From positions 2,373-66,372 of the forward strand of contig CAYJVT010000001.1 in assembly GCA_964373695.1 (NCBI GenBank): a stretch of 64,000 nucleotides of DNA, given 5' to 3'. Below the pieces are notes generated by a model. The model ran no database searches. It saw only the letters and a program-made list of their open reading frames with translations, and was not told the DNA's origin. Source of the stretch: an uncultured archaeon (GTDB taxonomy: Archaea; Aenigmatarchaeota; Aenigmatarchaeia; GW2011-AR5). Shown here one piece after another: positions 3,977 through 31,717 of the stretch. The position numbers and the translations under genes were made by a program. Each line of letters opens with the position of its first letter. Within the stretch, counting starts at the first letter, position 1.

Positions 3977-6229
3977 ATGAAGTTCTGCCTCCTGGACGCG
4001 GATTACGGGGTGCGCGCCGGCAAGCCTGTCATCATGCTGATAGGAGTCGACGCAAAGGGCAAGCGCGTCGTCGTTGAGGACTCTTTCCTCCCTTACTTCT
4101 ATGCGACCAAAGCCGTGAAGGCTCCGAATGTCGTGAAGACCGAGAAAGTCGGTATGAAGCTGGGTGGGAAGGAGCGGAGCCTTGTAAAGATATACGTCAA
4201 CCTCCCGCAGAACGTTCAGAAGGTAAGGGATGCCGTGAAGGGGCATGCGGACTGCTACGAATATTCGCTCAACTTCTACAAAAGATACCTTATCGACAGG
4301 GGCTTTTACCCTCTGGACTGGCTCTCCGTGAAAGGCGGCCGTGTAGAGAAATCATCCGGCGGCAGCCCGCCGCTGCGCGTCCTGGCGTTCGACATGGAGG
4401 TTGTCGACAAAAAGATAGTAGTGATTTCGTTCGCGACGCGCGCTTCGAAAGGGGTTATAACATACAAGGACGCGTCAAACATAATTCGTGTGAAGGATGA
4501 AAAAGAAACGATAGAGAAATTCTTCGCCGTGCTGGAAAAGGAGAAGCCGCATATGGTAGTCACGTACAACGGGGACGGATACGACTTCGACATCCTTCGT
4601 CAGAGGATGGAAGAGTTGAAAGTCGTGGGGCCGCGCATCGAATTCGAGAAGCACTCATACATGTCCTCGGCGCGCGTTTCGGGCTTCGTGCACATAGACC
4701 TCTACAATTTCGTCAACAACCTCATCTTCCAGCAGCTCGCGTCCGAGGTCTACACGCTCGCGGAGGTGTCTGAAGAGATATTGGGCAAGACGAAGAATGG
4801 CCTGTCATACGAGAATATCATAGAGTTGTGGAAAAGCGATGCCGGCGCTCTGGCGGAATACTGCCTCAACGACTCCATGCTGACGCTGGAACTGTCGGAA
4901 AGGCTCCTCCCGCAGCTCTTCGAGCTCTGCCGCGTGTCTGGTCAGCTGCCTTTCGACTGCTCCCGCCTGACATATGGCCTCATGGTCGAGTGGTTCCTGA
5001 TGCGCAAGGCCGCCGAGATGAAGATTGTTCATCCGAATCCTCCGCACTGGGATGAGATACAGAAAAGGCGTTTGCGGCGGTTCAGGGGTGGGTATGTGAA
5101 AGAGCCGGTCGGGGGCCTGCATGATGACATAGCGGTGTTCGATTTCCGCTCGCTGTACCCTTCCATAATAGTCACGTTCAACATATCGCCTGAAACCCTT
5201 AACTGCAAATGTTGCTCGTCGAAAGTTCCGGGCCTTGAATATCATTTCTGCAGGAAGCGGAAAGGATTTGTCCCGTCCGTGCTCGAGGAAGTGCTGCAGC
5301 GGCGGCAGGCAATAAAGAAGAGAATGAAAAAAGCGAAGGGGGAGGAGTTCGAGCGACTCAAGGGCGAGCAGGCCGCCCTGAAGCTTGTAGCCAACAGCAC
5401 ATACGGGATATTCGGCAGCCCTTCGGCCAGATGGTACTGCTTTGACTGCGGCCAGGCTGCCGCCGCATATGGCAGGAATTTCATACAGAAGGCCATAGAA
5501 GCGGCCGGAAAGCAGGGCCTGGAGGTCCTGTACGGCGACACGGACTCGCTTTTTGTCAGCTCAGGCCGGATTGCGGCCAAAAAATTCCTCAGGGATATGA
5601 ACAAGTCACTCCCTGGCATAATGGAGCTTGAGCTGCAGGGAATATATGTAAGGGGGCTGTTCGTCCCGCAGAAAATAGGCGGATATACGGCGAAAAAGCG
5701 CTATGCGCTGCTTGACGCCGAAGGCAACATGACTGTGCGCGGGTTGGAGACTGTCAGGAGGGATTGGTGCGATATGGCGAGGAATTTGCAGCGCGAAGTC
5801 CTTCACCTGGTCCTCCAGAAGAGGGAGAAAGATGCCGTGAGGAAGGTAAGGGAGGCCCTGGAAAAGGTGAGGAAGCGCCAGGTCGGCATGCAGGACATAA
5901 TCATGCGCACGCAGATGGGGAAAAGCCTGGAGGAATATAAGGCCACGGGTCCCCATGTCGAAGTCGCGCGCCGCCTCAGGGCAGAAGGCCATGATGTCCG
6001 TGAGGGAATGGTGATAAGCTATATAATCACGAAAGGCCGTGGAAGCATTTCGCAGCGCGCCATGCCTGCGGACAAGGTCGGCATCAGGGATTACGATATA
6101 GAATACTACTCAGAGAACCAGCTCCTGTCGGTGGCGCTCCGCGTGTTGCAGGTTTTCGGATATAAGGAAGAGGATTTTCTTACAGACGGACTGAAAATCT
6201 TTGGAGAACGTCGTTCTCCAAGATCTTGA
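3977..6229 (+). CDS. polB: Family B DNA polymerase with intact 3'-5' exonuclease and polymerase motifs
   Basis: FDME (ExoI), TYNGDGYD (ExoII), YCLND (ExoIII), DFRSLYPSII, KLVANSTYG, YGDTDS. True start is MKFCLLDADY at 3977; the upstream ORF extension overlaps lhr. Confidence 0.95.
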   Translation: MKFCLLDADYGVRAGKPVIMLIGVDAKGKRVVVEDSFLPYFYATKAVKAPNVVKTEKVGMKLGGKERSLVKIYVNLPQNVQKVRDAVKGHADCYEYSLNFYKRYLIDRGFYPLDWLSVKGGRVEKSSGGSPPLRVLAFDMEVVDKKIVVISFATRASKGVITYKDASNIIRVKDEKETIEKFFAVLEKEKPHMVVTYNGDGYDFDILRQRMEELKVVGPRIEFEKHSYMSSARVSGFVHIDLYNFVNNLIFQQLASEVYTLAEVSEEILGKTKNGLSYENIIELWKSDAGALAEYCLNDSMLTLELSERLLPQLFELCRVSGQLPFDCSRLTYGLMVEWFLMRKAAEMKIVHPNPPHWDEIQKRRLRRFRGGYVKEPVGGLHDDIAVFDFRSLYPSIIVTFNISPETLNCKCCSSKVPGLEYHFCRKRKGFVPSVLEEVLQRRQAIKKRMKKAKGEEFERLKGEQAALKLVANSTYGIFGSPSARWYCFDCGQAAAAYGRNFIQKAIEAAGKQGLEVLYGDTDSLFVSSGRIAAKKFLRDMNKSLPGIMELELQGIYVRGLFVPQKIGGYTAKKRYALLDAEGNMTVRGLETVRRDWCDMARNLQREVLHLVLQKREKDAVRKVREALEKVRKRQVGMQDIIMRTQMGKSLEEYKATGPHVEVARRLRAEGHDVREGMVISYIITKGRGSISQRAMPADKVGIRDYDIEYYSENQLLSVALRVLQVFGYKEEDFLTDGLKIFGERRSPRS

Positions 6230-6473
6230 AGGAATTATAGTGCTACAAGGAAAGAAATAGGATATTATTTTCCTTGTGCACTATATGTGAAACCAGAATT
6301 CATGTCCAGATTCTTTTCTGGTTTCACTATATATATATCCCTTCCAAGAAATTCACGAAATGAATGTACAAAAACCTTTTGGGCTTTTGACATTGTTGAA
6401 AAGCCAAAGGCTTTTAACATCTCAAAGAAACTGTGTTTCTTTGCGGACTCGAAGAACTTCGTTCTTTGCAGAC
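6192..6473 (+). other. AT-rich multi-hairpin structured element (candidate ncRNA or palindromic/MITE-like element)
   Basis: Hairpins at 6197-6224, 6236-6285, 6287-6327 (12-bp perfect stem), 6351-6365, 6371-6415, 6419-6448 (9-bp perfect stem) and 6447-6473. A stem from about 6224-6233 pairing with 6339-6349 encloses two hairpins. G-U pairs favour the + strand. Confidence 0.6.
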
Positions 6474-6501
6474 TTTAATACTTGACTATCGTCTTCAATA
6501 T

Positions 6502-7398
6502 ATGGAGAAGGATGAATTCGACAAGTACGTTATTGCAGGGAAGATAGCGGCCCTGGTGAGGGAAGAAAGCAGATCGTACGTGAAGGTGGGGGCGCCGCTC
6601 CTGGAAATAGCAAGGAAAGTTGAAGACTCTATAAGGAAGAACGGGGGCATGCCGGCTTTCCCTGTCAATCTGTCCTTGAACGACGAGGCCGCCCACTACA
6701 CTCCTGTTCCTGTGGATGAAAGAAAGATTTCCGAAGGCGACGTGATAAAAGTCGATATAGGAGTTCACGTCGACGGGTTCATAGGTGATACCGCTTATAC
6801 TGTGTCGTTCGGCGAAAAGCACAAGGCCCTGGTGAAGGCAGCGGAAGACGCGCTGGAAAAGGCCGTTCCGCTGTGCATTCCGGGTAAGGCTGTGGACGAG
6901 ATATCAGGCGTCATAGAGGATACAATAAAGTCCCGCGGCTTCAGGCCAGTAGCGAACCTGACAGGCCACGGCCTCGGGCAATGGGAGGGGCATGCGGAGC
7001 CCACGATACACAACGTCAGAGTCAATTATCCTTACGTCCTGAAGGAGGACGATGTCATAGCTGTCGAGCCCTTTGCAACGGACGGTGCAGGACGCATAAA
7101 AGATTCCGAGCCTTCCGTTATATTCTCCCTTGTCAGAAAGAAGCCCGTGCGCAGCCAGGAAGCGAGGAAGATAATCAGCGATATAGAGGCTTTCAAAGGC
7201 CTGCCTTTCGCGGAAAGGTGGCTCGGCTCATCGTTTGGCACGCGCCTCGCCATGAGGGACCTGAGGCGTTCCGGTATCCTGTATGAATATCCGGTCCTCA
7301 AGGAAGTTTCGAAGGGGATAATCACGCAGGCCGAGCATACCGTGATAGTGAGAAAGACGCCTGTCGTCACCACTGACTTAAAAAGTTTCGCGGACTAA
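6502..7398 (+). CDS. map: Methionine aminopeptidase type II
   Basis: AFPVNLSLNDEAAHY, KVDIGVHVDGFIGDTAYT, LTGH, AVEPF, QAEHT. Start at ATG 6502 (MEKDEF). Confidence 0.95.
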   Translation: MEKDEFDKYVIAGKIAALVREESRSYVKVGAPLLEIARKVEDSIRKNGGMPAFPVNLSLNDEAAHYTPVPVDERKISEGDVIKVDIGVHVDGFIGDTAYTVSFGEKHKALVKAAEDALEKAVPLCIPGKAVDEISGVIEDTIKSRGFRPVANLTGHGLGQWEGHAEPTIHNVRVNYPYVLKEDDVIAVEPFATDGAGRIKDSEPSVIFSLVRKKPVRSQEARKIISDIEAFKGLPFAERWLGSSFGTRLAMRDLRRSGILYEYPVLKEVSKGIITQAEHTVIVRKTPVVTTDLKSFAD

Positions 7399-7405
7399 TT
7401 TAATT

Positions 7406-7954
7406 ATGATAATAATAGTCGACAGCGGCAAGGGAAGCAGGGAAATATCCGGCTTCCTGAGGTCCAAGAACCAGATCATGAAACCTGGTGAAATAAAGGA
7501 CGGCTCCGCGTTCATTCTTTCCGACGGCCGTATAGACGGGAGCTCAAAAAAATCAATAGACAAGCTCCTGGAAAAGACCACGAATCCGGTTCTGGGCATA
7601 GGAGCCGGGATGGGATATATACTATCGTTCTACGGAGCCCAGGTCGGCGAATCCAAGGCCTCGCAGAAGCAGGAGCGTATCTCCCTGAAAAAGCCTTCGC
7701 CGCTTCTTCTGGACTTCAAGCGCGTGTTCGATGTCATGAAGGCCAGCAGCTGCGTTGTAAAGGAAGTGCCTGAGAACTTCTCGGTCCATGCATCGTCAAA
7801 AAGCTGCGAATTCGAGGTTGTACAGGAGCTGGAAAAGCCTTTCTTCGGGGTGCACTTCAACCCGGAGCTTGGGCAGGACGGCCTTCAGATACTCAGAAAC
7901 TTCGAGAAGTTTATAGGAGTGTGGGAGAAATACCACAAATATTCAAAGAACTGA
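7406..7954 (+). CDS. Class I glutamine amidotransferase-like protein, catalytic Cys and His absent
   Basis: IIVDSG N-terminus, PVLGIGAGMG (canonical GICLGxQ), FFGVHFNPE (canonical GVQFHPE). Confidence 0.75.
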   Translation: MIIIVDSGKGSREISGFLRSKNQIMKPGEIKDGSAFILSDGRIDGSSKKSIDKLLEKTTNPVLGIGAGMGYILSFYGAQVGESKASQKQERISLKKPSPLLLDFKRVFDVMKASSCVVKEVPENFSVHASSKSCEFEVVQELEKPFFGVHFNPELGQDGLQILRNFEKFIGVWEKYHKYSKN

Positions 7955-7961
7955 AATCGTC

Positions 7962-8129
7962 TCAGCAAGTGCATGTAATAATATTCTTCGCCTTTTCAAA
8001 AGGAAAATGTTCATAGCAGAAAGACGCTTCTATTCCATCCAGATTCATTTTCATGGACGTTGGATAGTCGCACACTATGCATCTCATGTCTCTCACCTGA
8101 ATCACATTGTCTCGCATATTAGAAGTCAT
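7962..8129 (-). CDS. Small putative Zn-finger protein (about 55 aa)
   Basis: CIVCD and FCYEH pattern. Start taken at MTSN to avoid overlap with the upstream gene. AT-rich. Confidence 0.4.
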   Translation of the reverse strand: MTSNMRDNVIQVRDMRCIVCDYPTSMKMNLDGIEASFCYEHFPFEKAKNIITCTC

Positions 8130-8142
8130 TTCTGGTACAATT

Positions 8143-8454
8143 CTATGTACATCTGCCGTCGTTGCAGTTGCATTTCTGGAGCCTGCTTGCGAGCCTGTCG
8201 CCATTGCACGTATATTCCTTGAGGATGTCGCCAGAGCATTCGTCAATGAACACGCTCTCGGCGCCGTTCGCCGTATATGTCACGGTACCCTTCGTCGATA
8301 TGTCTGTGCCGTCGGTGTCCTCGCACGTGATGACATCCGGTATTTCAGACTGGCCGGACTTGAAAGGCTGTTCCGGCACCGTGAATACGTACAGTGCGGC
8401 AAGGGCTATCACGACAGCGGCGATTATCGCATAGTCTCCTCGTTTGGGTTTCAT
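8143..8454 (-). CDS. Small membrane-anchored Cys-rich extracellular protein
   Basis: N-terminal TM (YAIIAAVVIALAALYVF), then CEDTDG..KGTV..DECSG.ILKEYTC..CNCNDGRC, a disulfide-type module. Confidence 0.75.
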   Translation of the reverse strand: MKPKRGDYAIIAAVVIALAALYVFTVPEQPFKSGQSEIPDVITCEDTDGTDISTKGTVTYTANGAESVFIDECSGDILKEYTCNGDRLASRLQKCNCNDGRCT

Positions 8455-8458
8455 CGTA

Positions 8459-11400
8459 TCATCCTGTATAAGTTATATCTTCCTCCAGGGCGCGCGACTT
8501 CCTTCTCTTCAGTATGCTCTCGTAAAACTTGTTCATGTCGTCGCTTACGCTTGGCTTCACTTCCTTCATCGCATGAGCAAAATCCGCGGAAGTGACCTGG
8601 TCGGCGTTTATGTCCTTTCTCATCGCGATTATCGCGGCTTCCCTTACAACCGACTCGAGGTCTGCGCCAGAAAAGCCTGTTGTTTCCTTAGACATCTTCA
8701 CGATGTTGACATCTTCGGAGAGCGGCATCTTGCTGGTGTGGACTTTCAGTATTTCCAGCCTGGTCTTCTCATCCGGCGTCGGAACGAGTATCTGCCTGTC
8801 GAACCTGCCAGGCCTGAGAAGCGCTGGGTCAACTATGTCGGGCCTGTTTGTCGCCGCCACGACCGCTATGTCGTGCAATTCCTCCAGTCCTGATATCTCG
8901 GCAAGCAGCTGCGAGACGACTCTTTCGGAGACGTGGCTGTCGTTCGAATATGACCTCTTCGGGACAAGAGCATCTACCTCGTCGAAAAATATTATGCAGT
9001 TATGCACAAACATACCATTTGCCAAAAAGTTTTCAGTGTCTTCTATCTGGAGATCGTAAACAATTTCTTTTTCTGGGAGTGCTTCTATGCCAACAACAGG
9101 CGCCCAAAATATGTCGGAATTGACTGATAGAGCTATAGGTGACATGGTATTATCAGACTTTTCAACGATCAGTGTCTGAAGCCTGTCTCTCGAAGGATTA
9201 TGAAGGTTGTTTGCCCAGCCATGTAAGGTGCTATTAGATACGCTTTCTCCCTTCAGATTTTGCGCAAGTTTACCTATAGGTATGACATCAAGTCTTGATC
9301 TTGATAGTCTTTCGATGTAATTTTGTGCGCGCTTTGCCTTTAATGGATGAGAAAAACCTATCTTGGCTAAAAAAGTTTGTATTTGCGACTGTGATGTAAG
9401 TTCTATGTTATTACCATTGTGGTCAACTGTCGGTATCCCGACTCTCAGCAAAACTTTTTGAAGAAGTTTTCTGTTTTCTTTCTTAGTTACACCTATACAT
9501 ATTTTAGAGCAATCGTTTGATATATATCCATCACCATCACACACACCTCTTAGCCAAGCTGCTAAAAGACTTTCTGGCATCTCCAGCAATTTTTCGGTCA
9601 TTTTCTGGAACAAAACTTTTACAGTCTCCGAATGATATGCACTGACAATACAAGTAGGCTTTTGAGTGTAATCCGATGCTTTAATTCCAAATTTACTTTC
9701 CATTATAGACTTCAAGCTTTCATGTAATGTTTTGTTGTCACCAGAAAAAATAATGGTATTTCTTGCATAGCTTCCATCTGACCAAATAAGACCGTGTGCG
9801 TACATCATATCTTCATCTATGAATTTTGGCAATTTAACTGACTTTGAAATGCTTGAGGACCACCCCTTATTTTTAAGTACAAAGTCTGTACATGAAATAG
9901 ATTCGATGTTATAGAATTTTTTCAATTCATCTAGCCTCATAAAGAACCTGTGACCTTTCCTTGTCCGAAACGTTCTAGATTTCAGATTTTTGGATATAGT
10001 TTTCTGCATAAGTTCGCCTTTTTCCAGTTTTTTATACATTTCATCAACTACGCCACCATAAAGAACTGTACTATTTGGCAAGAATTCAAGAGTGAAAAAA
10101 CGTCTCTGCGGAATCCTAATTTGTCTCGGGGTTGCAACAAAATTGCCTATTTTGAGCGATTTTGCCTCGACCCACTCAACTAATCCATTTTTTATAATTG
10201 GAAACTTATGTTCTGGAGTGCACCTTATGCTACCTACAGTTGTCTTTATAGAAAATAGATTTTGCCGCGGTTTTTTTTGCAAAGCTACTATTTCTTTGGG
10301 TATAACTTTCAGGTTTTTATCAAACGATAATACCTTTGTTCCGATCATATTATTATCAAAAATATGCTTAGCAGTCAATTCACTTCCATCTTCCAAAGTT
10401 ATTAATGTGTCGCCTGTTATACACGGGGCAACCTGCTTCGCCCGCCTGAATACGTCCCTTATGTGCCTCTCGCTCTCACCTACGTACATGGAAAGCAGTT
10501 CAGGGCCCTTGACCGAGATGAAGTTGGCGCCGCTCTCGTTTGCGATGGCCTTCGCCATCATAGTATTATGCGCTATTATGCCCCCGAATCCCGCTACAAA
10601 ATTATGGTTATCTTCGACTGTAAGGTCATAAACGTAGCCGTCAAAATGCTCCTTTGTAACATCTATTACCTCATCCCACATTACATCTGATTCGGACAGA
10701 ACTCTTAAGTCATCTGTTTTATTATCCGCTATATCCGAGATTATTTTTTGAATTTGACGCCTGCTTATGTGCTTTCCATCTATTTCATAGCCCTTGCCGT
10801 GCTTGGTTCTATAGAATTTTTGTTTTGACATACCAACATCCGTTCTGGTTTTCTCTAGTATTTTCTCTATATTGGGAATTATATCATATGTAGCCCCGGT
10901 TTTACCGCTCTTTAATAATAAGTCTAGTTTGTCAGATTTTTCTTTAATTGAAAAACCGATGGAATTTTTAAATGGAATTAAATTATTTTTTCCTATGATA
11001 AAAAGTCTCCAGTATGTATGGTCATATCCTTTGACTTTTTTAGGTCTTATTCTTGACACAATTCCAAATCTTAGAAGCATATAAACAATGCTGTTTGCTA
11101 TATCTCTTGATGCTGTAGTTATTTCTATTTCAGGGACACCGCTTCTAACACACCCCTCACCGTCAAAAAATGCCCTCAGAAAAGAGGCTATTACATTATC
11201 CGTGGATCTTAGAATTACATCCGGAACTTTGTTAAGTCTGGCGTTCTTAGGGTCATAATCCAGTGCCTGTTTCAGGTATTCGACCAATGTCTTTGAATTG
11301 CATTCTACCCTGAAAGTTCCTTCAGACGTGTCTTTTTCTATGGCTGTATCTATATTGAATAGATTTTTTGAGAGTTCAGAAACTCTTCTAATCAGATTGG

Positions 11401-15073: not shown

Positions 15074-15096
15074 AATTATCATCTCCTGCCGGTGGC

Positions 15097-21030: not shown

Positions 21031-21082
21031 TCGACCACTCTTTATTATTCCGGATTTAACTTTTATAATATTGTCAAAAAGC

Positions 21083-22363: not shown

Positions 22364-22401
22364 ATGGTAAGAATGTCTGAAGGGAATTTAAATAAGATTG
22401 G

Positions 22402-22716
22402 TTGAATGTTATTTCAATGCTCCACAAAGTTTATCGCATGCTCGGGAAAATCCCAAGAAGAAAAGTCGCCACGTACGGCTCTCTGGCTAGGGCCTGCGGG
22501 ACGTCGCCGCGCGCTGTCGGTGCGCTGATGCGCTCGAACAGGCATCCTGAAATGTGCCCGTGCTACAAGGTCGTTAAGTCCACAGGAGAAATCGGCGGAT
22601 ACGGCGGCTGCATCAAAGGCGCAAAGCTCAGGAAGAAGGTTTCGCTTCTCAGGAAAGACGGAGTGAAAGTCGCTGGCGGCAGGATAGACCTCGAGAAATT
22701 CGCCCATAAGTTCTAG
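22402..22716 (+). CDS. MGMT/Ogt-family O6-alkylguanine alkyltransferase (C-terminal domain only)
   Basis: IPRRKVATYGSLA, SPRAVG, PCYKVV (canonical PCHRVV), IGGYGG. Confidence 0.85.
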   Translation: MNVISMLHKVYRMLGKIPRRKVATYGSLARACGTSPRAVGALMRSNRHPEMCPCYKVVKSTGEIGGYGGCIKGAKLRKKVSLLRKDGVKVAGGRIDLEKFAHKF

Positions 22717-22775
22717 CGCGTGACATTAACTATAATTTATTCATTTCATCATGAGTATTCTTAATACGACGCTAG
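22713..22775. terminator. Imperfect inverted repeat between convergent ogt-like and tyrS genes
   Basis: ctagcg-cgt..attaa ... ttaat-acg-acgctag in the convergent gap. Confidence 0.3.
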
Positions 22776-22793
22776 ATGTAAGGGTATGGAATC

Positions 22794-23867: not shown

Positions 23868-23917
23868 GTATACACCTTTTAACCTTATTCGATAGGAATA
23901 ATTTAAAGGCAAACAGA

Positions 23918-25147
23918 ATGAAGATAAAAGTTCTCGGCGCCGGGCGCGAGGTTGGCAGGAGCTGCATACTTGTCGAAAGCGAAAGAAAGGTTGTTCTTGA
24001 CTGCGGCGTGAAGCTGCAGCCGGAGCCTCCGCAGTATCCGCTTGTAGAGCAGATTGGGGACATTGACGCCGCCATCCTGTCCCATGCGCATCTGGACCAC
24101 TGCGGCGCGATGCCACTTCTGATGAAGAACAGGAAGATTCCGGTGTTCATGAACGCCATTACGATGGAGCTTGCGGCGCTGCTGGTGAAGGACTCGATGA
24201 AGGTCGCGAAGATGCAGGGATACGGCACGCCCTACGGAATCCAGGACTTCAAGAGGTTCATGAAGAACTCAAAGCCAGTCAATTACGGGGAGAAATTCAT
24301 GTCGTGCCGCCTCTACGACGCGGGGCATATCCCCGGGAGCGCCGGCATCATGATGGAAAAGGAGAAGATTTTCTACACCGGGGACATCCAGACGATACAG
24401 AGCCGGCTTCTTTCGCCGGCGAAGCTGCCGGAAAAATGCGAGACTCTTGTCATGGAAAGCACTTACGGTTTGGGGAACCATCCACTGAGGGAGCAGGAGG
24501 AGAGGAACCTTATAGAGTCCGTCGAGGAGGCCATAAGCAAGGACGAGACGGCCCTCATGCCGGTCTTCGCGGTCGGGCGTGCACAGGAAGTTCTCATGAT
24601 ACTGAAGGATTACGCAAACAAGATAGCGCTTGACGGGATGACGCGCACCGCCAGTGAGATAATCGCGGAATATGGCTCCTACCTGAAGAACCCGAAGGAA
24701 TTTAGGAAGGTCCTGAAGAAGGTCCATATCGTGAAGAAAGGGGCCGAGAGGGGCAGGATACTGAAGAAATTTCCCATAATAATAGCCAGTGCAGGAATGC
24801 TCGGCGGCGGGCCTGCCGTTGATTACCTCTCGAAAATATCGCACAGGGAGGAAAGCAAGGTGCTCTTCACCGGCTTCCTGGTGGAGGAGAGCCCGGGAAG
24901 CAACCTCATCAAGACGAAGATATTCGAGAACGGAAGGGACAAATTCGATGTCAACTGCGAGCTCAGGCAGTTCAACCTCAGCGCCCACGCCGACAGGAAG
25001 GGCCTGTTTTCGATAATAGAGAGGCTGAAGCCGAAGAACGTGCTCTGCATTCACAGCGATTCGTGCGGCGCATTCGCCAGGGAGATACATGAGAAATACG
25101 GGATAAATGCCTTCGCCCCCGGAAACGGCGAAGAGGTAAGGATATGA
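23918..25147 (+). CDS. beta-CASP metallo-beta-lactamase ribonuclease (aCPSF-like)
   Basis: GAGREVGRSC, SHAHLDHCG, AGHIPGSA, YTGD, MESTYG, AVGRAQE, LSAHAD. Confidence 0.92.
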   Translation: MKIKVLGAGREVGRSCILVESERKVVLDCGVKLQPEPPQYPLVEQIGDIDAAILSHAHLDHCGAMPLLMKNRKIPVFMNAITMELAALLVKDSMKVAKMQGYGTPYGIQDFKRFMKNSKPVNYGEKFMSCRLYDAGHIPGSAGIMMEKEKIFYTGDIQTIQSRLLSPAKLPEKCETLVMESTYGLGNHPLREQEERNLIESVEEAISKDETALMPVFAVGRAQEVLMILKDYANKIALDGMTRTASEIIAEYGSYLKNPKEFRKVLKKVHIVKKGAERGRILKKFPIIIASAGMLGGGPAVDYLSKISHREESKVLFTGFLVEESPGSNLIKTKIFENGRDKFDVNCELRQFNLSAHADRKGLFSIIERLKPKNVLCIHSDSCGAFAREIHEKYGINAFAPGNGEEVRI

Positions 25148-26157
25148 TTGTTGTCGACGGCTCTCATGGTGAGGGGGGCGGCCAGATACTGAGGACCTCG
25201 CTTGCATTGTCCGCAGTCACCGGCGAGCCGTGTAAAATCTTGAACATAAGGAAAGGCAGGCAGAACCCGGGCATGCAGGCGCAGCATGTGGAGGCTGCAA
25301 AAGCCTTGGCCCAACTGTGCGATGCTGAAACAAGTGGCCTTCATCTTCATTCATCTGAACTTGAATTTGTTCCGCATGACATAAAGGGCGGCAATATACG
25401 TATTTTCATCCCCACTGCAGGCTCAGTTGCACTCGTTCTTCAGGGAATCATGATAGCGTCCCTTCGCGCGAAGAAGGGAGTTTCCGTGAGGATAGAGGGA
25501 GGCGCCACCCATGGAAAGTGGGCGCCCTCGGTGGTATATGCAAAGAACATCCTGCTGCCGCTCCTTTCAAAGATGGATTATGAGGGCTACATAGATGTGG
25601 AGAAGTACGGCTACTATCCAAAGGGCGGCGCCAGCGTGTCCTGCAACTTTGCCCCGAAAAAGCTGAAACCACTTGAGCTCATTGAAAGGGGGAAGGTGCT
25701 GTCAGTTGAGGGGGTTTCCCACGCATCCAAGCTTCTGGAGAAATCCCATGTAGCCGAGAGGCAGAAGAAATCCTGCGTGGAACACATGGAGAAGAACGGG
25801 TTTGAATGCAGGATATTCGATTCTTATTTCAACACAGTATGCGAGGGCTCCGCCGTCGACCTCTGGGCGAGAACGGAGAACTCTTTTCTTGGCGCCGACG
25901 GGCTTGGAGAAAAAGGGATGCGCGCGGAGGATGTCGGGAAGTGTGCGGCCGAAAAGCTCGTCGCTCTGCTGAAGGCCGGTGCCGCCCTGGACGAGCATGC
26001 GGAAGACCAGCTCCTTCCCTACATCGCCCTTGCAGGCGGCAGCTTCAGTTATCATCACCTGACGCCGCACACGCGCACCAACATGCATGTGATAGAGAAA
26101 TTCCTTCCAGTGAAATTCTCAATAGGTGAAAATATCATTTCATGCCGGGGCTCATGA
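25144..26157 (+). CDS. rtcA: RNA 3'-terminal phosphate cyclase
   Basis: DGSHGEGGGQILRT, NIRKGR.NPGMQAQH, GYYPKGG, DEHAEDQL, PHTRTN (catalytic His). ATGA overlap with the upstream gene. Confidence 0.95.
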   Translation: MIVVDGSHGEGGGQILRTSLALSAVTGEPCKILNIRKGRQNPGMQAQHVEAAKALAQLCDAETSGLHLHSSELEFVPHDIKGGNIRIFIPTAGSVALVLQGIMIASLRAKKGVSVRIEGGATHGKWAPSVVYAKNILLPLLSKMDYEGYIDVEKYGYYPKGGASVSCNFAPKKLKPLELIERGKVLSVEGVSHASKLLEKSHVAERQKKSCVEHMEKNGFECRIFDSYFNTVCEGSAVDLWARTENSFLGADGLGEKGMRAEDVGKCAAEKLVALLKAGAALDEHAEDQLLPYIALAGGSFSYHHLTPHTRTNMHVIEKFLPVKFSIGENIISCRGS

Positions 26158-26703
26158 GGAAAACTTCATTTTCAGGTATTCTGCTATCGCGTGGCATATG
26201 AAGGAATGGACCGGTTCTATTATTGTGTAGTCGTTGTCATCCACTACAATGCAGTGCCCGGCGATTTTCTTGAGCATCCCGCCGGTAGAGCCTGTCAATC
26301 CGACTGTGGTTGCGCCTTTTTCTTTCGCGTACTCCACAGACTTGACAATGTTACGAGAGTTTCCCTTTGAGCTTATCGCTACGAGAACGTCATGTCCGTT
26401 CACGTTATGGATTCTCAGCTGTTCTGAAAAAACGTCGTCATACGATATGTCGTTTGAGATTGTTGTCATGAGGGATATGTTGACGGTGAGTGGTATGACA
26501 TTGAACTGCTTTTTCGGCTTTGTATACGTGACGAGGTCGTTCGAAAAATGGGACGCTATGGAGGCGCTGCCGCCGTTGCCGCATATGAAGACCCTTCCGG
26601 CGCTCCCGTAAGTATTAAGCATGATATCCGCGATTTCATTTATCTTCTGATGCTCCAGGGAATTCAGGGCCTTGATATACATCTGCGTCATTTCCTGGAA
26701 CAT
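26152..26703 (-). CDS. gmhA: Phosphoheptose isomerase (SIS domain)
   Basis: FICGNGGSASIASH, SNDISYDDVFSEQL, AISSKGNSRNI, EPVHSFICH. Confidence 0.85.
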   Translation of the reverse strand: MFQEMTQMYIKALNSLEHQKINEIADIMLNTYGSAGRVFICGNGGSASIASHFSNDLVTYTKPKKQFNVIPLTVNISLMTTISNDISYDDVFSEQLRIHNVNGHDVLVAISSKGNSRNIVKSVEYAKEKGATTVGLTGSTGGMLKKIAGHCIVVDDNDYTIIEPVHSFICHAIAEYLKMKFSS

Positions 26704-26772
26704 AAATATGTCTTCCGTGGTGATTACTAAAGGGTTTTGCGTATGAATGCTTCGCCCATGAAATATCTTTCT

Positions 26773-27411
26773 TCACACCATAGCGCTCTTCTGGCTGCTT
26801 GCCATCGCCTGCTTTATGACGAAATCGACGCCGCCCGATTTCGCGGCGCCGTGGCCTGGAAAAAGGTATGAGATGCCCAGTTCCGAGAGCTTCTGGAGGG
26901 ATTTGACCATGTCATCCCTGCTGCCGCCCGGGAAATCCGTCCTGCCTGATACTGTATCGCCCGATATGAGTATCCTTTTCGCTCTCTCGTAGAGGCACAC
27001 AGAGCCTGGCGTGTGCCCCGGAGTATGCAGTACTTCGAACCTGAAATTCTTTGTCTTTATGGCGGACTTGTCCTTCAGGAGCCTGTCAACAGTTGTCACC
27101 CGCGGCCTTTCGCCAAAAACCTCCGCAAGTGTCTCGCCGCTTTCAAGGCAGTCCTTGTCTTTCTGGTGTATGTATATCTCGGAGCCCAGCCAGTCCCTGA
27201 ATTTCTTGTTCCCGCCTGTGTGGTCAAAGTGATGGTGCGTGTTTATTATGCTCTTGAGGCTCATTATGTCGGATATCGACTCTATCTCTCTTTTCATCTC
27301 ATAAAAGAATCTCCCTGTGCCGGTGTCGATTATAAGCTCGTCATCCACGACATAGACGTTGCAGTCGCCCTCAACGCCGGGCAGGACATGTATGTTTCTG
27401 AAGACCTGCAT
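26773..27411 (-). CDS. Glyoxalase II-like MBL-fold hydrolase
   Basis: IDTG, THHHFDHTGG, HTPGHTPGS, ISGD, GRTDFPGG, PGHG. Confidence 0.88.
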   Translation of the reverse strand: MQVFRNIHVLPGVEGDCNVYVVDDELIIDTGTGRFFYEMKREIESISDIMSLKSIINTHHHFDHTGGNKKFRDWLGSEIYIHQKDKDCLESGETLAEVFGERPRVTTVDRLLKDKSAIKTKNFRFEVLHTPGHTPGSVCLYERAKRILISGDTVSGRTDFPGGSRDDMVKSLQKLSELGISYLFPGHGAAKSGGVDFVIKQAMASSQKSAMV

Positions 27412-27435
27412 CTTTTAGATATGCAGTGAAATTTT

Positions 27436-28245
27436 TTATAGGGATTCGGGCTGGACATGCCTCCCGATAAGCCTGTGGGCGTTTATTGCGGAGAAGCGCG
27501 TCCCGTCCTTTAAGGCTATTATGTTCCCTTTGGCCGATGTTACCGTGCCCTTTATCCTGATGCCGTCTGCAACCTCGACAACTTCGGGCTCCGATATTAT
27601 CCTGTCGAGCCTGTAGTGGCTTCGCAGGTCGTATATCTCCGGGTTTATCAGATGCGCGTCGAATCCGTTCCCTCCAAGGCGTGCTATGGCTGAGGATATG
27701 GAGCCGATGCAGACATTGGGGTCGCAGAACAGCCTGGAATGCTTTTCCTTGGAGACCATCCTGTCGACTATGCCGAGATGCCTCCTTATATCCTGCTCTA
27801 TTATGCGGACCTCCTTCCCGTCCTTCACGTGGCCTATTTTCGCGCCGAAGTCGGCCCCCTGCTCTATGAGGCGGTAGAGAAACCTCATATCGAACGATAT
27901 CCCTACTTTCAGCATCCCGTCAAAAGCGGCAAGATAGATGAAATACTTGTTCTCCATGCAGCTGTCTCTCTTGACTGGGTTTATGCACTCCTTTCCAGTG
28001 CACTGGACGCAGTTGAAAAAATCGTCCTGCATGCAGCAGTAGTTGCACATGTAGTTGTTGTCGGTCGGTGAGGAGTTGGGGCATTCAAAGTGCTTTCCTC
28101 TTTTTTTGTACCCGGTGCATGTCTTCTTTCCGAGAACCATGTCTATGTAGCGGCCGAAAAGCTTAATGGAAGAGCCGTCGGAGAACGATATGAAGGGCTC
28201 GTAGGAGCCTGATTCCTGCTTCCATGAATATTTCATTATTTGCAT
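27436..28245 (-). CDS. DUF2797-like Cys-rich protein
   Basis: CTGY..C, CNYC, CVQC clusters and YLAAFDGMLKVGIS..RLIEQGAD motif. Confidence 0.75.
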   Translation of the reverse strand: MQIMKYSWKQESGSYEPFISFSDGSSIKLFGRYIDMVLGKKTCTGYKKRGKHFECPNSSPTDNNYMCNYCCMQDDFFNCVQCTGKECINPVKRDSCMENKYFIYLAAFDGMLKVGISFDMRFLYRLIEQGADFGAKIGHVKDGKEVRIIEQDIRRHLGIVDRMVSKEKHSRLFCDPNVCIGSISSAIARLGGNGFDAHLINPEIYDLRSHYRLDRIISEPEVVEVADGIRIKGTVTSAKGNIIALKDGTRFSAINAHRLIGRHVQPESL

Positions 28246-28709
28246 CGGACTCTCCTCTTTGCCGCCTCAACCGCGGCTCTTATGAAATCCGAGTCGTCAA
28301 GATTTCGGAATGCCTTCAGCGCCGGAGCGCATTCCTCTATGTCCTCGGGCCTGCCGGAGGAGGCTATTTGGCTGTAATATATGTAAAAGAGATCGTCTGA
28401 ATGCCCGTTCTTTGACATTTCCGCATTCACTTGGTCGTCGTCGCTTGTTCCCAGGGCGGCCTTGAAGAGCTGCCTTGTCAATAAGGCCTTTATCCCGCGC
28501 TCGTCCTTCTCGCGGACGAATATGTTGTCATAATCAATGCATATGAGCGCTGTGTCGCCCGACGAAAAGAAGGATGTTGAGTCCCTCACATGGAACTCCA
28601 TTGATGAATACCTCAGTGGCAGGCCGAACCCTGTCAGGACTTCGTCAAATATTTTCGAGGCGAGCTTTGTAGAATCGTCATCTTTCACGAGGCTCTTCGT
28701 TACTCTCAT
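28236..28709 (-). CDS. Hypothetical protein
   Basis: 157-aa ORF with host-like codon usage, overlapping the start of the next gene. Confidence 0.7.
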   Translation of the reverse strand: MRVTKSLVKDDDSTKLASKIFDEVLTGFGLPLRYSSMEFHVRDSTSFFSSGDTALICIDYDNIFVREKDERGIKALLTRQLFKAALGTSDDDQVNAEMSKNGHSDDLFYIYYSQIASSGRPEDIEECAPALKAFRNLDDSDFIRAAVEAAKRRVRCK

Positions 28710-28743
28710 GATAGTTATTTGGTTTCAGCGGTAAATAAAATTT

Positions 28744-29439
28744 CTATATGCCGGAGAAGTCCTTCCTCGCCTTCTCAAGCGCCTCAAAGGTTCCTACATC
28801 CACAAGCCTTTCGACCTCGAAGGCATACATCTTTTCGCCGGCCTTCAGCATGGAGGGGAATACGTCCTTCCCGAAGTCGCAGAAGCCGCTTGTTATGTAC
28901 TTGAAAACCGACGGCTCCAGTATATAGACAGCTCCGCTGGCAAGATTTGACCTGGGCTTCTTGGGCTTCTCCTCAAAGGACACGATCCTTCCGTTGCCGT
29001 CCGTCTCTATTATGCCCTTTGATTGCGGATTGTTCGTTTCCATGTAGACCCCTATGGTGGCCGCCGCGCCTTTCTTCCTGTGGAGCTTTGCCATGGCGCT
29101 CAGGTCGGCGTTTGTCATGTTGTCGCCGTAAATGACGACAAATGTGCCTTCAAGGAAATTTTCGAGGGATTTCACCCCTCCGGCCGCTCCGACAAGCTCC
29201 TTCTCCACCGTGTATAGTATGTTCACGCCGGAATCCGTGCCGTCACGAAAGTATTCGTGTATGCAGCTGGCGAGGTGGTGGGTCGTTATTACTATGTCCT
29301 TTATGCCGTGCTTTTTCAGGAGCTCTATTATATGCCATAGTATTGGCTTGCCGCCTACGTCTATCATCGGTTTGGGCACCTTCTCGGTGAGCGGAAGAAG
29401 CCGCGTCCCTTTGCCGGCGGCCACTATGACGCCTATCAT
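28744..29439 (-). CDS. Sugar-phosphate nucleotidyltransferase (HddC / mannose-1-P guanylyltransferase-like)
   Basis: VAAGKGTRLLPLTEKVPKPM, VIYGD, FEEKP, DFGKDVFP, DVGT. Confidence 0.9.
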   Translation of the reverse strand: MIGVIVAAGKGTRLLPLTEKVPKPMIDVGGKPILWHIIELLKKHGIKDIVITTHHLASCIHEYFRDGTDSGVNILYTVEKELVGAAGGVKSLENFLEGTFVVIYGDNMTNADLSAMAKLHRKKGAAATIGVYMETNNPQSKGIIETDGNGRIVSFEEKPKKPRSNLASGAVYILEPSVFKYITSGFCDFGKDVFPSMLKAGEKMYAFEVERLVDVGTFEALEKARKDFSGI

Positions 29440-30266
29440 ACTCCGCCACCCTTCATGGCCCTTATGGCCCTCTCATATCCGTCGTGGCTTCCGACGTCAA
29501 GCACCATGCCGTCATAGATGTATCCCGAAAGCTGGCCGTCCATGGCCAGCCTGTTGAAGAGGTCTTCTATCATGAACTTCTGGCGAGTGACGTAATCCGA
29601 CACTCCGGGCTCGAATATGCAGAGCCCGGCGTTTATTATGTTTGAAGTGCTCCTCGCCGGTTTTTCCTTGAAATGCACGACGCGGTTTCCCCTCATCTTG
29701 GCCACGCCGTAATTCCTCGTTTCGCTGGATGTGGAAAGCAGGACGGTAGCTAGCGTCCCCTGGCTCTTGTGGAATTCGTGCATCTCGTATAGGTCCGGAT
29801 TGAGAAGCGTATCGACATTTACCATCACGAACCTGTTCCTTATCAGCTCCTTGGCCGGCATGAGGCACCCGGCTGTGCCGAAAGGCTTGTCCTCGGCTAT
29901 GTATTCTATACTTACCCCGAAGTTGGAGCCGTTGCCGAAATGCTCCATCACCTTCTCCTTCATGTGGCCGACAGAAACCACGAGGTTGCGTATGTCATAT
30001 TTCTTTAGCATCCTTATCTGATGCTCCAGTATCGGCCGTCCGTTTATCGGTATCAGCGGCTTGGGTATCTCGTAGGTTATGGGACGGAGGCTAACGCCTT
30101 CGCCTCCGGCCAGTATCAGCGCGGTATCCATGTCGGTTTTCCCGAATGCCCTGGACAGCATGACCTCTATGGCATGGGACCTGTTTCTTATGTTTCTCTT
30201 GTCAACCATGCTGTCCAGCCTTTTCAGGACATCCTGCTTCACAGTTATCGTCACGCGCTCTACCAT
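29436..30266 (-). CDS. Ribbon-helix-helix domain fused to sugar-phosphate nucleotidyltransferase
   Basis: RVTITVKQDVLKRLDSMV..NRSHAIEVML (RHH), then LILAGGEGVSLRPITYEIPKPLI, FKEKP, DVGS. Confidence 0.88.
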   Translation of the reverse strand: MVERVTITVKQDVLKRLDSMVDKRNIRNRSHAIEVMLSRAFGKTDMDTALILAGGEGVSLRPITYEIPKPLIPINGRPILEHQIRMLKKYDIRNLVVSVGHMKEKVMEHFGNGSNFGVSIEYIAEDKPFGTAGCLMPAKELIRNRFVMVNVDTLLNPDLYEMHEFHKSQGTLATVLLSTSSETRNYGVAKMRGNRVVHFKEKPARSTSNIINAGLCIFEPGVSDYVTRQKFMIEDLFNRLAMDGQLSGYIYDGMVLDVGSHDGYERAIRAMKGGGV

Positions 30267-30275
30267 CACACCACC

Positions 30276-30304
30276 GTATTGAAATAGTATGAAAAAGTAT
30301 GAAA
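30276..30304. promoter_or_regulatory. Three direct repeats at a 10-bp period, candidate RHH operator
   Basis: GTATTGAAA (30276), AGTATGAAA (30286) and AGTATGAAA (30296), in the divergent gap next to the TATA-like ttatttaa (30311-30318). Confidence 0.5.
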
Positions 30305-30340
30305 CTCAAATTATTTAAGCGGTAGTCCCATATTCTGCAG

Positions 30341-31357
30341 ATGGTAATCAGGAGCAGGTCCCCGGTGAGGATATCCTTTGCCGGAGGGGGGACAGATGTG
30401 CCCCCGTATAGGGATGAAAAGGGCGGGTGCGTCGTTTCAGCGACGATAAACAAATACGCCTACGCGACGCTGGAGCAGCGCAACGACAGCAACATACACA
30501 TACATTCCGCCGATTTCCTGAAGAGCTTGGCTTTCAAGAACACGGCCGAAATCGAATACAATAACGAACTCGACCTTCTCAAGGCCGTGATAAAGAAGAT
30601 GGCGCCTTCTGCCGGCATGAACATATTCATGAGGTGCGATGTCCCGCCGAAATCCGGGCTGGGCAGCAGCGCGGCCGCGTTTGCCGCCATGATAGGGCTG
30701 TTCAATCACATGAGAAAGGAAAGAAGGATGACGGATTATGAAGTGGCGGAACTGGCATACAGGCTTGAGAGGGAGGAGCTTAAGGTGGGCCGCGGGAACC
30801 AGGACCAGTATGCAACGGTTTTCGGCGGGATGAATTTCATAGAATTCGGGGAAGGCTGGGTGAAGGTCAACCCGCTGAGGATGAAAAAGGACCACTTGCT
30901 TGAGCTTGAAAAGCATCTTATCCTCGCGTACATAAAGCCGCGGCAGGACGAAAGCAGCAACATCATAGACGACCAGACGAACCGTTACATATCCGGCGAT
31001 ACGAGGACTGTGGAGGGCCTCGACAAGGCGAAGGAAGTGGCTGTCGAGATGAGATATGCCCTCCTCGGCGGCGACCTGATGCGGTTCGGCGAACTCCTCA
31101 ATGAGGGTTGGGAGGCAAAGAAGAAGTTTTCGCCGCTCATCAGCAACAGGTATATAGACGATATTTACGACCTGGCGAGGAGGAACGGCGCCCTCGGAGG
31201 GAAGATTACTGGAGCCGGTGGATCCGGCTTTTTCCTTTTTTTCTGCGAACCCAACAAGGAGCATGTCCTAACAGACGTGCTGGAGAAATCGGGGCTCAAG
31301 CCCATGACTTTCACGTTCGACCACGACGGGCTTCAGACATGGGAAGTAAACAAGTGA
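30341..31357 (+). CDS. hddA: GHMP kinase, D-glycero-alpha-D-manno-heptose-7-phosphate kinase-like
   Basis: SPVRISFAGGGTDV, PPKSGLGSS, QDQYATVFGG, GGKITGAGGSGF. Confidence 0.88.
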   Translation: MVIRSRSPVRISFAGGGTDVPPYRDEKGGCVVSATINKYAYATLEQRNDSNIHIHSADFLKSLAFKNTAEIEYNNELDLLKAVIKKMAPSAGMNIFMRCDVPPKSGLGSSAAAFAAMIGLFNHMRKERRMTDYEVAELAYRLEREELKVGRGNQDQYATVFGGMNFIEFGEGWVKVNPLRMKKDHLLELEKHLILAYIKPRQDESSNIIDDQTNRYISGDTRTVEGLDKAKEVAVEMRYALLGGDLMRFGELLNEGWEAKKKFSPLISNRYIDDIYDLARRNGALGGKITGAGGSGFFLFFCEPNKEHVLTDVLEKSGLKPMTFTFDHDGLQTWEVNK

Positions 31358-31366
31358 GGTGTTGAG

Positions 31367-31624
31367 ATGAATGATGGATATAGGGAACTTATGGAAGCCG
31401 TAGGAGATATTCCGGTAGGGGCGAGAAGGGTCGTGTCCATAGGAGCATATCCGGGAAGGACGGAAATCATGATGACGGATAACGGCCCGAAGGCAATTTA
31501 TGCAAATGGGGGCGACTCGGGATTGGCAACTGTTTACCTGGACAAAGAAGCGCCCCCTGAGGAGTGGAGAATAGGACGCGGCCTCAGCGAAGATGACTTT
31601 AGGAGGGCAGCTGAAAGGCTTTGA
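31367..31624 (+). CDS. Hypothetical 85-aa protein
   Basis: Purine-rich ORF preceded by SD-like GAGGTG. No recognisable motif. Confidence 0.55.
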   Translation: MNDGYRELMEAVGDIPVGARRVVSIGAYPGRTEIMMTDNGPKAIYANGGDSGLATVYLDKEAPPEEWRIGRGLSEDDFRRAAERL

Positions 31625-31660
31625 CCCAAGGCTTAAAAAGAATTTGGGGAAGGGATAGCC

Positions 31661-31717
31661 ATGAAAATCCTTGAAAAACAAAGTTTTTCAGGATCTCAAA
31701 GGAGGCACCTCCTTTGA
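31661..31717 (+). CDS. 18-codon uORF / leader peptide MKILEKQSFSGSQRRHLL
   Basis: ATG at 31661. Its TGA (31715-31717) overlaps the TTG start of the epimerase. Confidence 0.35.
   Translation: MKILEKQSFSGSQRRHLL

Follow-up and report, generated by a model that had tools for sequence, protein, structure and literature searches.

What are two short hairpins doing 25 kb apart in the genome of an uncultured archaeon, with stems that differ only by paired changes? The window, the whole 64,000-nt stretch of DNA analyzed here, carries these 28-nt hairpins at 6197-6224 (copy 1) and 31667-31694 (copy 2). An earlier note read them as the full-length and miniature forms of one RNA or single-stranded DNA family. 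We think it very probable that they are instead copies of small (53- to 55-nt) gene-less mobile DNA elements of Aenigmatarchaeota (DPANN archaea) that moved as DNA.

The pairing itself, with its three compensatory changes, is confirmed by the sequence at both sites. Each 28-mer is made up of 13 + 3 + 12 nt, with a lower stem of 4 bp, a bulged T, an upper stem of 8 bp, and a triloop (GTC in copy 1, AAA in copy 2); complementary swaps at positions 4/25, 8/22, and 10/20 separate the copies. Folded as single-stranded DNA, the 28-mers reach -7.8 and -7.2 kcal/mol (z -4.3 and -3.8), and whole-element folds have z -5.9 (53 nt, copy 2) and z -9.3 (150 nt of copy 1). In both copies the CTYRAAGGA after hairpin 1 is indeed the opening of a second hairpin. 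The TGAAA noticed 5′ of both copies is also present, but it is part of the host genes (Leu-Lys codons of the polymerase gene, Met-Lys codons of the epimerase gene) and not of the element. The degenerate pattern proposed in the earlier note matches nowhere but at the two copies, versus 0 matches in 100 shuffles, a test that is circular because the pattern was taken from those copies. The independent support for the two-copy observation is the element family itself.

To search for the family, a covariance model, R1, was built from 15 copies. The window's own genome (G000) gave 94 matches to R1, representing about 65 places; a genome of the same genus (G001) has 93 places, and one of the same family (G005) has 39. 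At E <= 1e-5, R1 has matches in 14 of 151 sampled genomes of the phylum. Seven of the 11 same-family genomes match, five with 26 to 38 scored matches, and in most other families there are no matches. Every genome used here is a metagenome assembly.

Across these copies, the element consists of two adjacent hairpins, 53 to 55 nt in total. In hairpin 1, one unpaired base separates a lower stem of 4 bp from an upper stem of ~8 bp, which is capped by a triloop; hairpin 2 has the form CAAAG..CTTTG. The stem bases yield a family-wide 10-bp terminal inverted repeat (ATCTGCAAAG on the left, its complement on the right), which is a family consensus, the match within a copy being nothing extra (6.22 of 12 versus 6.36 in shuffles). 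The stem tips vary freely provided that Watson-Crick complementarity stays. Most copies are only 75 to 88% identical to their nearest relative, which implies that a large part of the family is old. There are also near-identical copies whose flanks are unrelated, and the case for apparent recent movement rests on insertion polymorphisms.

Copy 1 lies at the end of a DNA polymerase B (PolB) gene, in a region with the following features.

3605-6229, + strand: family B DNA polymerase gene (Pfam PF00136, PF03104), its last 11 codons and stop supplied by copy 1
6197-6348, + strand: copy 1, a composite insertion of 152 nt within the last codons of PolB (R1, 42 bits over 6197-6250)
6197-6224, + strand: hairpin 1 of copy 1, encoding the new PolB tail I-F-G-E-R-R-S-P-R-S, with the stop at 6227-6229
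6225-6234, + strand: 5′ arm of hairpin 2, pairing with 6340-6348 across the nested element (DNA fold)
6235-6331, + strand: nested 97-nt double-hairpin MITE, TA-flanked, with identity to copies on contigs C35 and C10
6332-6348, + strand: loop remnant and 3′ arm of hairpin 2, terminating in CCAAG
6349-6363, + strand: displaced original PolB end (K-F-T-K-stop), now untranslated, the same sequence as the 3′ end of PolB in G001
6366-6473, unstranded: array of four more same-family hairpins, between PolB and an M24 peptidase gene (ATG at 6502)

Empty sites at orthologous loci, a check that the earlier note had proposed, were found in relatives for both copies. In G001 and seven other relatives, PolB ends without the insert, as G-L-K/R-K-F followed by 2 to 5 residues, and copy 1 is a lineage-specific insertion. 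The extra hairpins of about 100 nt within its second hairpin are present, but they belong to a separate element, and its right end lies at 6348 rather than at about 6346. The idea of a full-length and miniature pair thus falls: copy 1 is a ~55-nt element plus an unrelated nested MITE. That MITE is 100% identical to C35:6714-6810 and 98% identical to C10:22418-22517, with more copies, full or cut, at contig ends and in G001; it is multicopy and unrelated to the twin-hairpin element. Nesting goes both ways, since at G001 C33:58311-58360 a twin-hairpin element lies inside this same MITE. An un-nested relative of copy 1's type of hairpin 2 is found at G001 C13:21143-21198. In the array after PolB, R1 scores 52.7 bits at 6393-6446 (+) and 48.3 bits at 6420-6473 (-). 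The orthologous G001 array corresponds to it in its first and last hairpins and differs in the middle ones.

Copy 2 is found at the start of an epimerase gene.

31661-31717, + strand: leftover ORF of 18 codons, which begins at the original ATG of the epimerase, crosses the element, and ends at a TGA overlapping the new TTG (TTGA)
31667-31719, + strand: copy 2, an intact 53-nt twin-hairpin element and the best R1 match (74.1 bits)
31667-31694, + strand: hairpin 1 of copy 2, the 28-mer
31695-31719, + strand: hairpin 2 of copy 2, containing GGAGG and the TTG start
31714-32631, + strand: NAD-dependent epimerase/dehydratase gene (PF01370, 196 bits, from residue 3), its TTG start supplied by the element

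This copy sits after codon 2 of the epimerase and is absent at the orthologous site in the same-genus genomes G001 and G002; it, too, is a lineage-specific insertion, one that supplies the gene with a new predicted ribosome-binding site and TTG start. Because the 18-codon ORF of the old ATG stops on the terminal TTG of this 53-nt form, which also carries GGAGG, translation can probably restart at that TTG by termination-reinitiation. The same arrangement of leftover ORF and TTG occurs at G001 C37:34603-34655 and C33:41902-41954. In all, start-codon donation is seen in four G001 cases and the window case, all with the GGAGG form of hairpin 2. The 54-nt form has no in-frame stop and would add 18 residues, so that a gene would be read through. 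One such copy lies in frame within the intact 488-amino-acid gatB of G001 and is missing from G000 and nine other relatives. We infer the translation of in-gene copies and the reinitiation at TTG from sequence. The elements land even inside essential genes, apparently without breaking them. The copies in genes or at gene starts include those in DNA polymerase B, gatB, and adenylate kinase.

Genome-wide mapping of flanks between G000 and G001 gave at least 13 clean junctions. Indels at hairpin sites peaked at 52 to 57 nt, with a second group at 105 to 110, the unit of insertion being the pair of hairpins. No target-site duplication of fixed length was found at the twin-hairpin junctions, where exact flanking repeats were 0, 0, 0, 0, 1, 1, 1, 2, 2, and 2 nt; the repeat was AT in three of the examined junctions, and exact cut sites are ambiguous by 0 to 2 nt. 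The flank profile (A at -2 and A/T at -1; A [81%], T [52%], and A/T at +1 to +3) indicates a target preference for A or T before the element and A-T-(A/T) after it. Copies accumulate in intergenic DNA, in other repeats, and beside their own kind, and about three quarters are intergenic. This piling up beside existing copies gives rise to the hairpin arrays. Several adjoin PATE-like repeats or lie within the 97-nt MITE, and many others are in unique intergenic DNA or in genes.

What, then, keeps the stems paired? An element family whose hairpins persist through compensatory change, as the earlier note supposed, is borne out, with 16 of 21 pairs varying on both sides and 94.5% of cells pairing, both figures inflated by the choice of model copies for hairpin formation. 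Over 93 distinct copies, there are 1781 Watson-Crick cells versus 33 G-T and 28 A-C. The supposed selection on structure as RNA or single-stranded DNA holds up as far as kept pairing goes, but not for an RNA role: G-T and A-C are equally rare, and copies are oriented without regard to the direction of genes. On the transcribed strand we count 19 G-U-compatible mismatches and on the other strand 21, no excess of G-U over A-C, and relative to co-directional neighbor genes, 18 copies have the same orientation and 28 the opposite one. Given no tolerance of G-U on the transcribed strand and an orientation that ignores gene direction, the constraint on the stems therefore acts on DNA, not RNA. One can still envision functional RNA structures (leader or trailer regulators, terminators, mRNA stabilizers, or a small RNA), with selection on RNA folding explaining the compensatory changes. 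Copies are mostly intergenic, many in G005 lie between the genes of a pilin array, the palindromic stems would form hairpins on either transcript, and a 9-bp stem in copy 2 encloses its ribosome-binding site together with its start codon, with likely effects on translation. However, we also find in-frame copies within coding sequence and sites that are occupied in one genome but not in its sister, and Rfam 15 at gathering threshold gave zero matches across the whole window; together with the mismatch and orientation counts, these make an RNA role very unlikely as the general explanation. Individual copies may nevertheless have been co-opted as RNA structures. That the two 28-mers are A+T-rich palindromes resembling each other by chance has next to no probability: their modest size is all that speaks for it, against dozens more copies that share the geometry and have a second hairpin beside it, and the genome has 964 perfect hairpins of at least 7 bp versus 287 when shuffled. 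The covariance-model matches, genome-wide and across genomes, refute it.

The element probably moves as DNA, with its hairpins or inverted ends recognized by an enzyme supplied in trans, and the earlier note had looked to an HUH/Y1 protein for this part. The copies could then be minimal PATEs, fused IS200/IS605 ends moved as single-stranded hairpin DNA by a Y1 (HUH) TnpA. IS608 ends are hairpins with an unpaired base, and the element has two end hairpins, the first with such a base; target duplication is not consistent; and G000 has a complete Y1 transposase of 130 amino acids (C52:1357-1749) and a fragment on C17. A 52-bp Haloquadratum PATE appears to move, indicating that elements this small can be mobile (PMC3119063). 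The distribution of Y1 transposases, however, does not follow the element. G000 is the only element-rich genome with an intact one (PF01797); none was found in G001, G005, G006, G014, or G108, among which G005 is in 2 contigs and G014 is 97% complete, and G017 has only 33-amino-acid remnants. Genomes of other families with intact Y1 genes carry no elements. The end hairpins of the IS200 copy itself are G+C rich and of CCACCGT type, unlike the CAAAG type, and the left flank of the element has no conserved 4- to 5-nt word, with a stronger A-T-W signal on the right. Nor is an orientation bias clear along the 918-kb contig of G005 (20 plus and 13 minus before the GC-skew turn, 3 and 3 after). Unlike PATEs (PMC3119063), the element bears consensus terminal inverted repeats. 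We consider the PATE explanation improbable and the resident IS200-type Y1 transposase an unlikely partner. Searches for other movers found no protein-coding gene multicopy at >=90% identity in G000 or G005 and none that was transposase-like in G001, no parent insertion sequence with the same ends in these three genomes, and no autonomous partner of the element. The lack of a transposase would fit hairpins that arise locally without a dedicated enzyme, by fold-back or template-switch errors of replication or repair, and spread by recombination at CAAAG/CTTTG words. Single-hairpin indels of 23 to 36 nt are also seen, the arm inserted at G001 C20:4571 is complementary to a preexisting flank, and the direct word CAAAG borders a 48-nt difference between two C52 repeat copies. 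Some repeat copies are identical except that their loops are flipped (gaa/ttc, aaa/ttt), and two 96%-identical copies differ by one complementary pair alone. Yet a discrete 52- to 57-nt unit with fixed polarity, an end consensus, and the same hairpin order recurs at many unrelated sites in several genera; local errors would hardly make so uniform a unit, nor near-identical copies with unrelated flanks, and we rate a local origin as quite improbable. As a tentative suggestion, possible but on balance doubtful, the mobile element might spread with no recognizable transposase, through the action of a single-copy enzyme, from host or virus, that has so far not been linked to transposition, or else through DNA synthesis templated by hairpins, with a sequence shaped for harmless landing (the in-frame form, or a ribosome-binding site and start on the stop of the leftover ORF).

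The family belongs to a familiar class of selfish DNA, of which it is a very small version. The SMR-A elements and PATEs of Haloquadratum walsbyi are likewise archaeal and gene-less and are often nested in or beside small elements and palindromes, and their mobilization has been called enigmatic; SMR-A shares inverted ends unrelated to resident transposons and the lack of target duplication and coding capacity (PMC3119063). SMR-A is about 110 bp and >95% conserved, whereas the present element is half as long, with divergent copies whose stems are kept; SMR-A strongly prefers the near-terminal palindromes of PATEs and IS605-type elements (PMC3119063), and the present element also lands in unique DNA and genes; the comparison is one of described features. 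Rickettsia RPEs are palindromic selfish repeats found in frame in housekeeping genes and translated as an extra peptide, but they are bacterial, 100 to 150 bp, and mostly intragenic (PMC10969869), and the present family differs in having one form that repairs a gene start with its own putative ribosome-binding site and start codon. The double-hairpin elements of Allomyces mitochondria, as summarized in PMC7218506 (citing Paquin, Laforest and Lang 2000), are short, optional between close relatives, and present in both spacers and genes, and how they move is likewise unexplained; they belong to a eukaryotic organelle and are unrelated in sequence, and on that summary's description the likeness is architectural only. 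REP, BIME, and REPIN sequences share short hairpin repeats, compensatory stem changes, and intergenic arrays, and a single-copy Y1 enzyme, the RAYT transposase, is believed to mobilize them in the form of hairpin DNA (PMC3116915, PMC3733652). Unlike them, the present element has an archaeal host, insertions inside genes, and no GTAG/CGTC tag in its consensus, and no RAYT-like gene tracks it (most element-rich genomes lack PF01797). Prokaryotic MITEs (Correia, RUP, Nezha) are also non-autonomous, with terminal inverted repeats and high copy number, and can bring expression signals to neighboring genes, as this element appears to do; they differ in that it has no regular target duplication and no same-ended parent insertion sequence that we could find, and it is as small as the smallest MITEs described, or smaller.

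DPANN genomes, of about 1 Mb, are densely packed and nonetheless hold dozens of tiny insertions from this family. The family would illustrate two ways in which a minimal genome can put up with insertions, namely reading through them in frame and restarting, in coupled fashion, at a start codon that they donate. In size, the element is close to the smallest mobile DNA, its stems are preserved as DNA through compensatory change, and it has yet to be matched with an enzyme; a partner, if found, would add to knowledge of archaeal DNA enzymes that recognize hairpins. Since copies lie within genes and at gene starts, gene callers will put starts and ends in the wrong place and misjudge lengths; in the window, the PolB tail and the epimerase start are element derived. 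Elements and arrays also break metagenome assemblies, and many copies are at contig ends. The hosts are described as one family of tiny groundwater archaea.

Both 28-nt hairpins of the earlier note, which open copy 1 (window 6197-6348) and copy 2 (31667-31719), are read in the window sequence at the positions it gave, and the three differences between their stems are complementary swaps, as it had claimed. The two share one geometry: a lower stem of 4 bp and an upper stem of 8 bp, with one bulged T between them, closed by a 3-nt loop. Their folding energies as single-stranded DNA are -7.8 kcal/mol (z -4.3) and -7.2 kcal/mol (z -3.8). The whole window had no match in Rfam, and no tRNA was found in it.

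In a loose search of the 1.02-Mb source assembly (60 contigs), more hairpins with this geometry came up, and a second hairpin of the CAAAG..CTTTG type follows each of them; we call this gene-less repeat of 53 to 55 nt the twin-hairpin element. Perfect hairpins of at least 7 bp number 964 in the source genome, compared to 287 in a shuffled one, and many of the genome's hairpins are arrayed in tandem, frequently at the ends of contigs. From 15 complete two-hairpin units of three genomes (alignment A3), we built a covariance model, R1, which gives a less biased census than pair counts in A3. Within the window, R1 matched copy 2 at 74.1 bits and copy 1, the second hairpin of which is interrupted, at 42 bits, as well as two overlapping units in a hairpin array at 6366-6473. 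The genome-wide search envisaged in the earlier note did turn up further copies in the source genome, as follows.

Places matched by the covariance model R1
Source genome (G000): 94 matches, about 65 places
Genome of the same genus (G001): 93 places
Genome of the same family (G005), 918-kb contig: 39 places

The twin-hairpin finding is real, and the family is of greater interest than a chance palindrome. Across the phylum sample, R1 had matches in 14 of 151 genomes; within the family, 7 of 11 genomes had matches and 4 had none. This patchy occurrence suits a mobile element. R1 had no match in viral and other archaeal loci picked by exact 16-mer word scans; in those scans of genome and viral contigs the word was too short, and nearly all matches arose by chance. 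In the literature searched, no paper was found that describes elements of this kind from Aenigmatarchaeota. For the copies in G001, nearest-neighbor identity has a median of 81%, and a few pairs in unrelated flanks reach at least 90%. This is an old, diverse family that has seen some recent copying.

To define the unit, the whole of G001 was fetched, and the 150-nt flanks of every hairpin site were mapped onto the other genome (G000 versus G001). Length differences at these sites peak at 52 to 57 nt, with a second group at 105 to 110, and therefore the usual unit gained or lost is the two-hairpin element. At least 13 insertion junctions are clean. Junctions read by hand, together with the flank profile, had suggested a fixed AT target duplication; however, exact flanking repeats counted automatically were 0 to 2 nt long (AT in three cases), with no fixed value and no regular duplication, and A-T-W is therefore taken as a target preference or as part of the element. 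Over 94 copies, the profile of the left flank is A (-2) followed by A or T (-1), and that of the right flank is A (81%), T (52%), and then A or T. Both element ends share an inverted consensus, ATCTGCAAAG, with the end-to-end match within a copy not above the between-copy level (6.22 versus 6.36 of 12). Conservation lies in the stem bases and in a central AGATCT-like junction; the stem tips vary.

Copy 1 does not lie in a spacer: from it come the last 11 codons and the stop codon of a family B DNA polymerase (PolB) gene (3605-6229, 874 aa). PolB of G001 closes with the codons G-L-R-K-F-T-K-stop, and its last 15 bases are identical to window 6349-6363; between the G-L-K codons of the window and this displaced end lie the 152 nt of 6197-6348. 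In seven further relatives, from other genera, PolB ends in G-L/M-K-K/R-F and a few residues, with no insert. The orthologous site, at which the earlier note had proposed to look for an empty state, is thus uninterrupted in G001 and all seven, and the insertion is therefore derived. The protein end was changed by the insertion from G-L-K-K-F-T-K to G-L-K-I-F and eight new residues. The short G-L/M-K-K/R-F motif near the C terminus is found in 8 of 8 relatives examined and may form a tail that binds a partner; the insertion leaves G-L-K-x-F in place (K to I) and replaces what follows with the eight element-encoded residues (6185-6229).

The earlier note also took copy 1 for the full-length version of copy 2. 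This was not borne out: its extra bases, 6235-6331, are a separate multicopy 97-nt double-hairpin repeat (MITE) located in the loop of the second hairpin, 100% identical to contig C35:6714-6810 and 98% to C10:22418-22517, with many more copies in G000 and G001 and confirmed TA flanks. At G001 C13:21143-21198, an element whose second hairpin is the same as that of copy 1 occurs un-nested, and the reverse nesting, a twin-hairpin element within the 97-nt MITE, is seen at G001 C33:58311-58360. Beyond the PolB stop, the orthologous hairpin arrays of the two genomes (window 6366-6473 versus G001 C11, locus L004) have their first and last hairpins in common and differ in their middle stems; in these two genomes of one genus, the arrays therefore turn over quickly.

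Copy 2 lies directly upstream of an NAD-dependent epimerase gene with a TTG start at 31714. In G001 and G002, of the same genus, this gene begins ATG-AAA and runs directly into the conserved V-T-G-G-A-G-F-I-G region, uninterrupted where the window has 53 extra bases, so that here too the orthologous site is empty. In the 53-nt form, GGAGG lies in the 5′ arm of hairpin 2, and the last bases are TTG-A-A/G-G. Where such a copy follows codon 2 of a gene, the original ATG begins an ORF of 18 codons whose TGA overlaps the new TTG (TTGA), itself in frame with the remainder of the gene. This arrangement is present at copy 2 (31661-31717; 31714 onward) and in two G001 genes, and a fourth G001 gene starts at the TTG of a GGAGG-type hairpin. 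Judging from this layout, termination-reinitiation at the donated TTG is likely.

Read in frame from its first base, the 54-nt form contains no stop. The intact gatB ORF of G001 (488 aa, both Pfam domains) contains a 54-nt copy, and these 18 codons are absent from G000 and nine other relatives. In G000, a similar in-frame copy lies close to the beginning of a membrane protein gene (C19:710-763), and in G002 another one follows codon 2 of an adenylate kinase gene. One can envision that copies inside genes survive either by in-frame read-through or by restart at a donated start. Splicing as bulge-helix-bulge RNA introns was considered but not favored, since the copies within genes keep the reading frame, contain no stop, and have unrelated flanks.

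Are the stems constrained as RNA or as DNA? In A3, 94.5% of cells pair (39 to 55% in slid controls), with both sides changed in 16 of 21 pairs, a pairing figure inflated because copies were picked for forming hairpins. Among 93 distinct copies, paired cells comprise 1781 Watson-Crick, 33 G-T, and 28 A-C, and in the 64 copies with an inferable transcribed strand, 19 G-U-compatible mismatches fall on that strand and 21 on the opposite one. Between codirectional genes, 18 copies point along the genes and 28 against them. By a crude gene call the genome is roughly 83% coding, and about three quarters of the copies fall between genes. A single complementary pair is the sole difference between two 96%-identical copies. 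Selection on an RNA fold does not fit this pattern, which agrees with a need for the DNA to form a hairpin or a cruciform, or with an arm-onto-arm copying process. The constraint on the stems acts on DNA, not RNA.

As for the moving enzyme, the earlier note had proposed an HUH/Y1 partner. An IS200-type Y1 transposase is indeed encoded in the source genome, once complete (C52:1357-1749, flanked by an unnamed gene and a UbiA gene) and once as a fragment, but across the phylum sample Y1 genes do not track the element. PF01797, the Pfam domain of this enzyme, had no match in four element-rich genomes of the sample (G005, G006, G014, and G108) and only 33-aa remnants in a fifth (G017); intact Y1 genes occur in genomes of other families, all without elements. 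No copy was found in G001 by tblastn, and the end hairpins of the C52 element itself are G+C-rich, unlike those of the twin-hairpin element. On these grounds, a general role for a Y1/HUH partner was rejected. An autonomous parent was also sought, but an all-against-all ORF comparison in G000, G001, and G005 gave ordinary paralogues only, such as FtsZ. Replication-strand orientation bias gave no clear signal on the 918-kb G005 contig. The solo IS200-type element on C52 (1189-1356 and 1750-1790) has at its left end a nested hairpin that includes GCGAAGC, a mini-hairpin of very high stability; at the right end, the hairpin (CCACCGT type) is similar to the G+C-rich ones of larger repeats at contig ends that are like PATEs, the IS200/IS605-derived elements described in Haloquadratum.

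Haloquadratum small mobile repeats and PATEs (PMC3119063) are among the closest described relatives in kind. Rickettsia palindromic elements (PMC10969869) are alike in their in-frame habit, and mitochondrial double-hairpin elements, as far as their citation in PMC7218506 goes, in architecture. The twin-hairpin element is still familiar selfish DNA, in a small and odd variant, and not a system of a new kind.

Single-hairpin indels, flipped loops, and a CAAAG-bounded deletion show that arrays are also reshaped by local recombination and fold-back events. At G000 C12:17076-17104, a 29-nt single-hairpin insertion, absent from G001, occupies the loop of a longer stem of the host, within a region that looks like a structured RNA gene. 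Three copies of a multi-hairpin repeat (G000 C10:47-148, C16:10864-11034, and C28:9922-10023) have identical stems and reverse-complemented loops (gaa/ttc, aaa/ttt); between the arms, the loops have flipped. Copies of a larger repeat at C52:1-150 and C52:3540-3644 (G000) differ by a 48-nt two-hairpin block with CAAAG on both sides, as expected for repeat-mediated deletion or assembly collapse. A hot spot at G005 C2:76-84 kb (L118 and L119) proved to be a pilin gene array rather than a transposon, with seven elements between tandem small archaeal type IV pilin-like genes.
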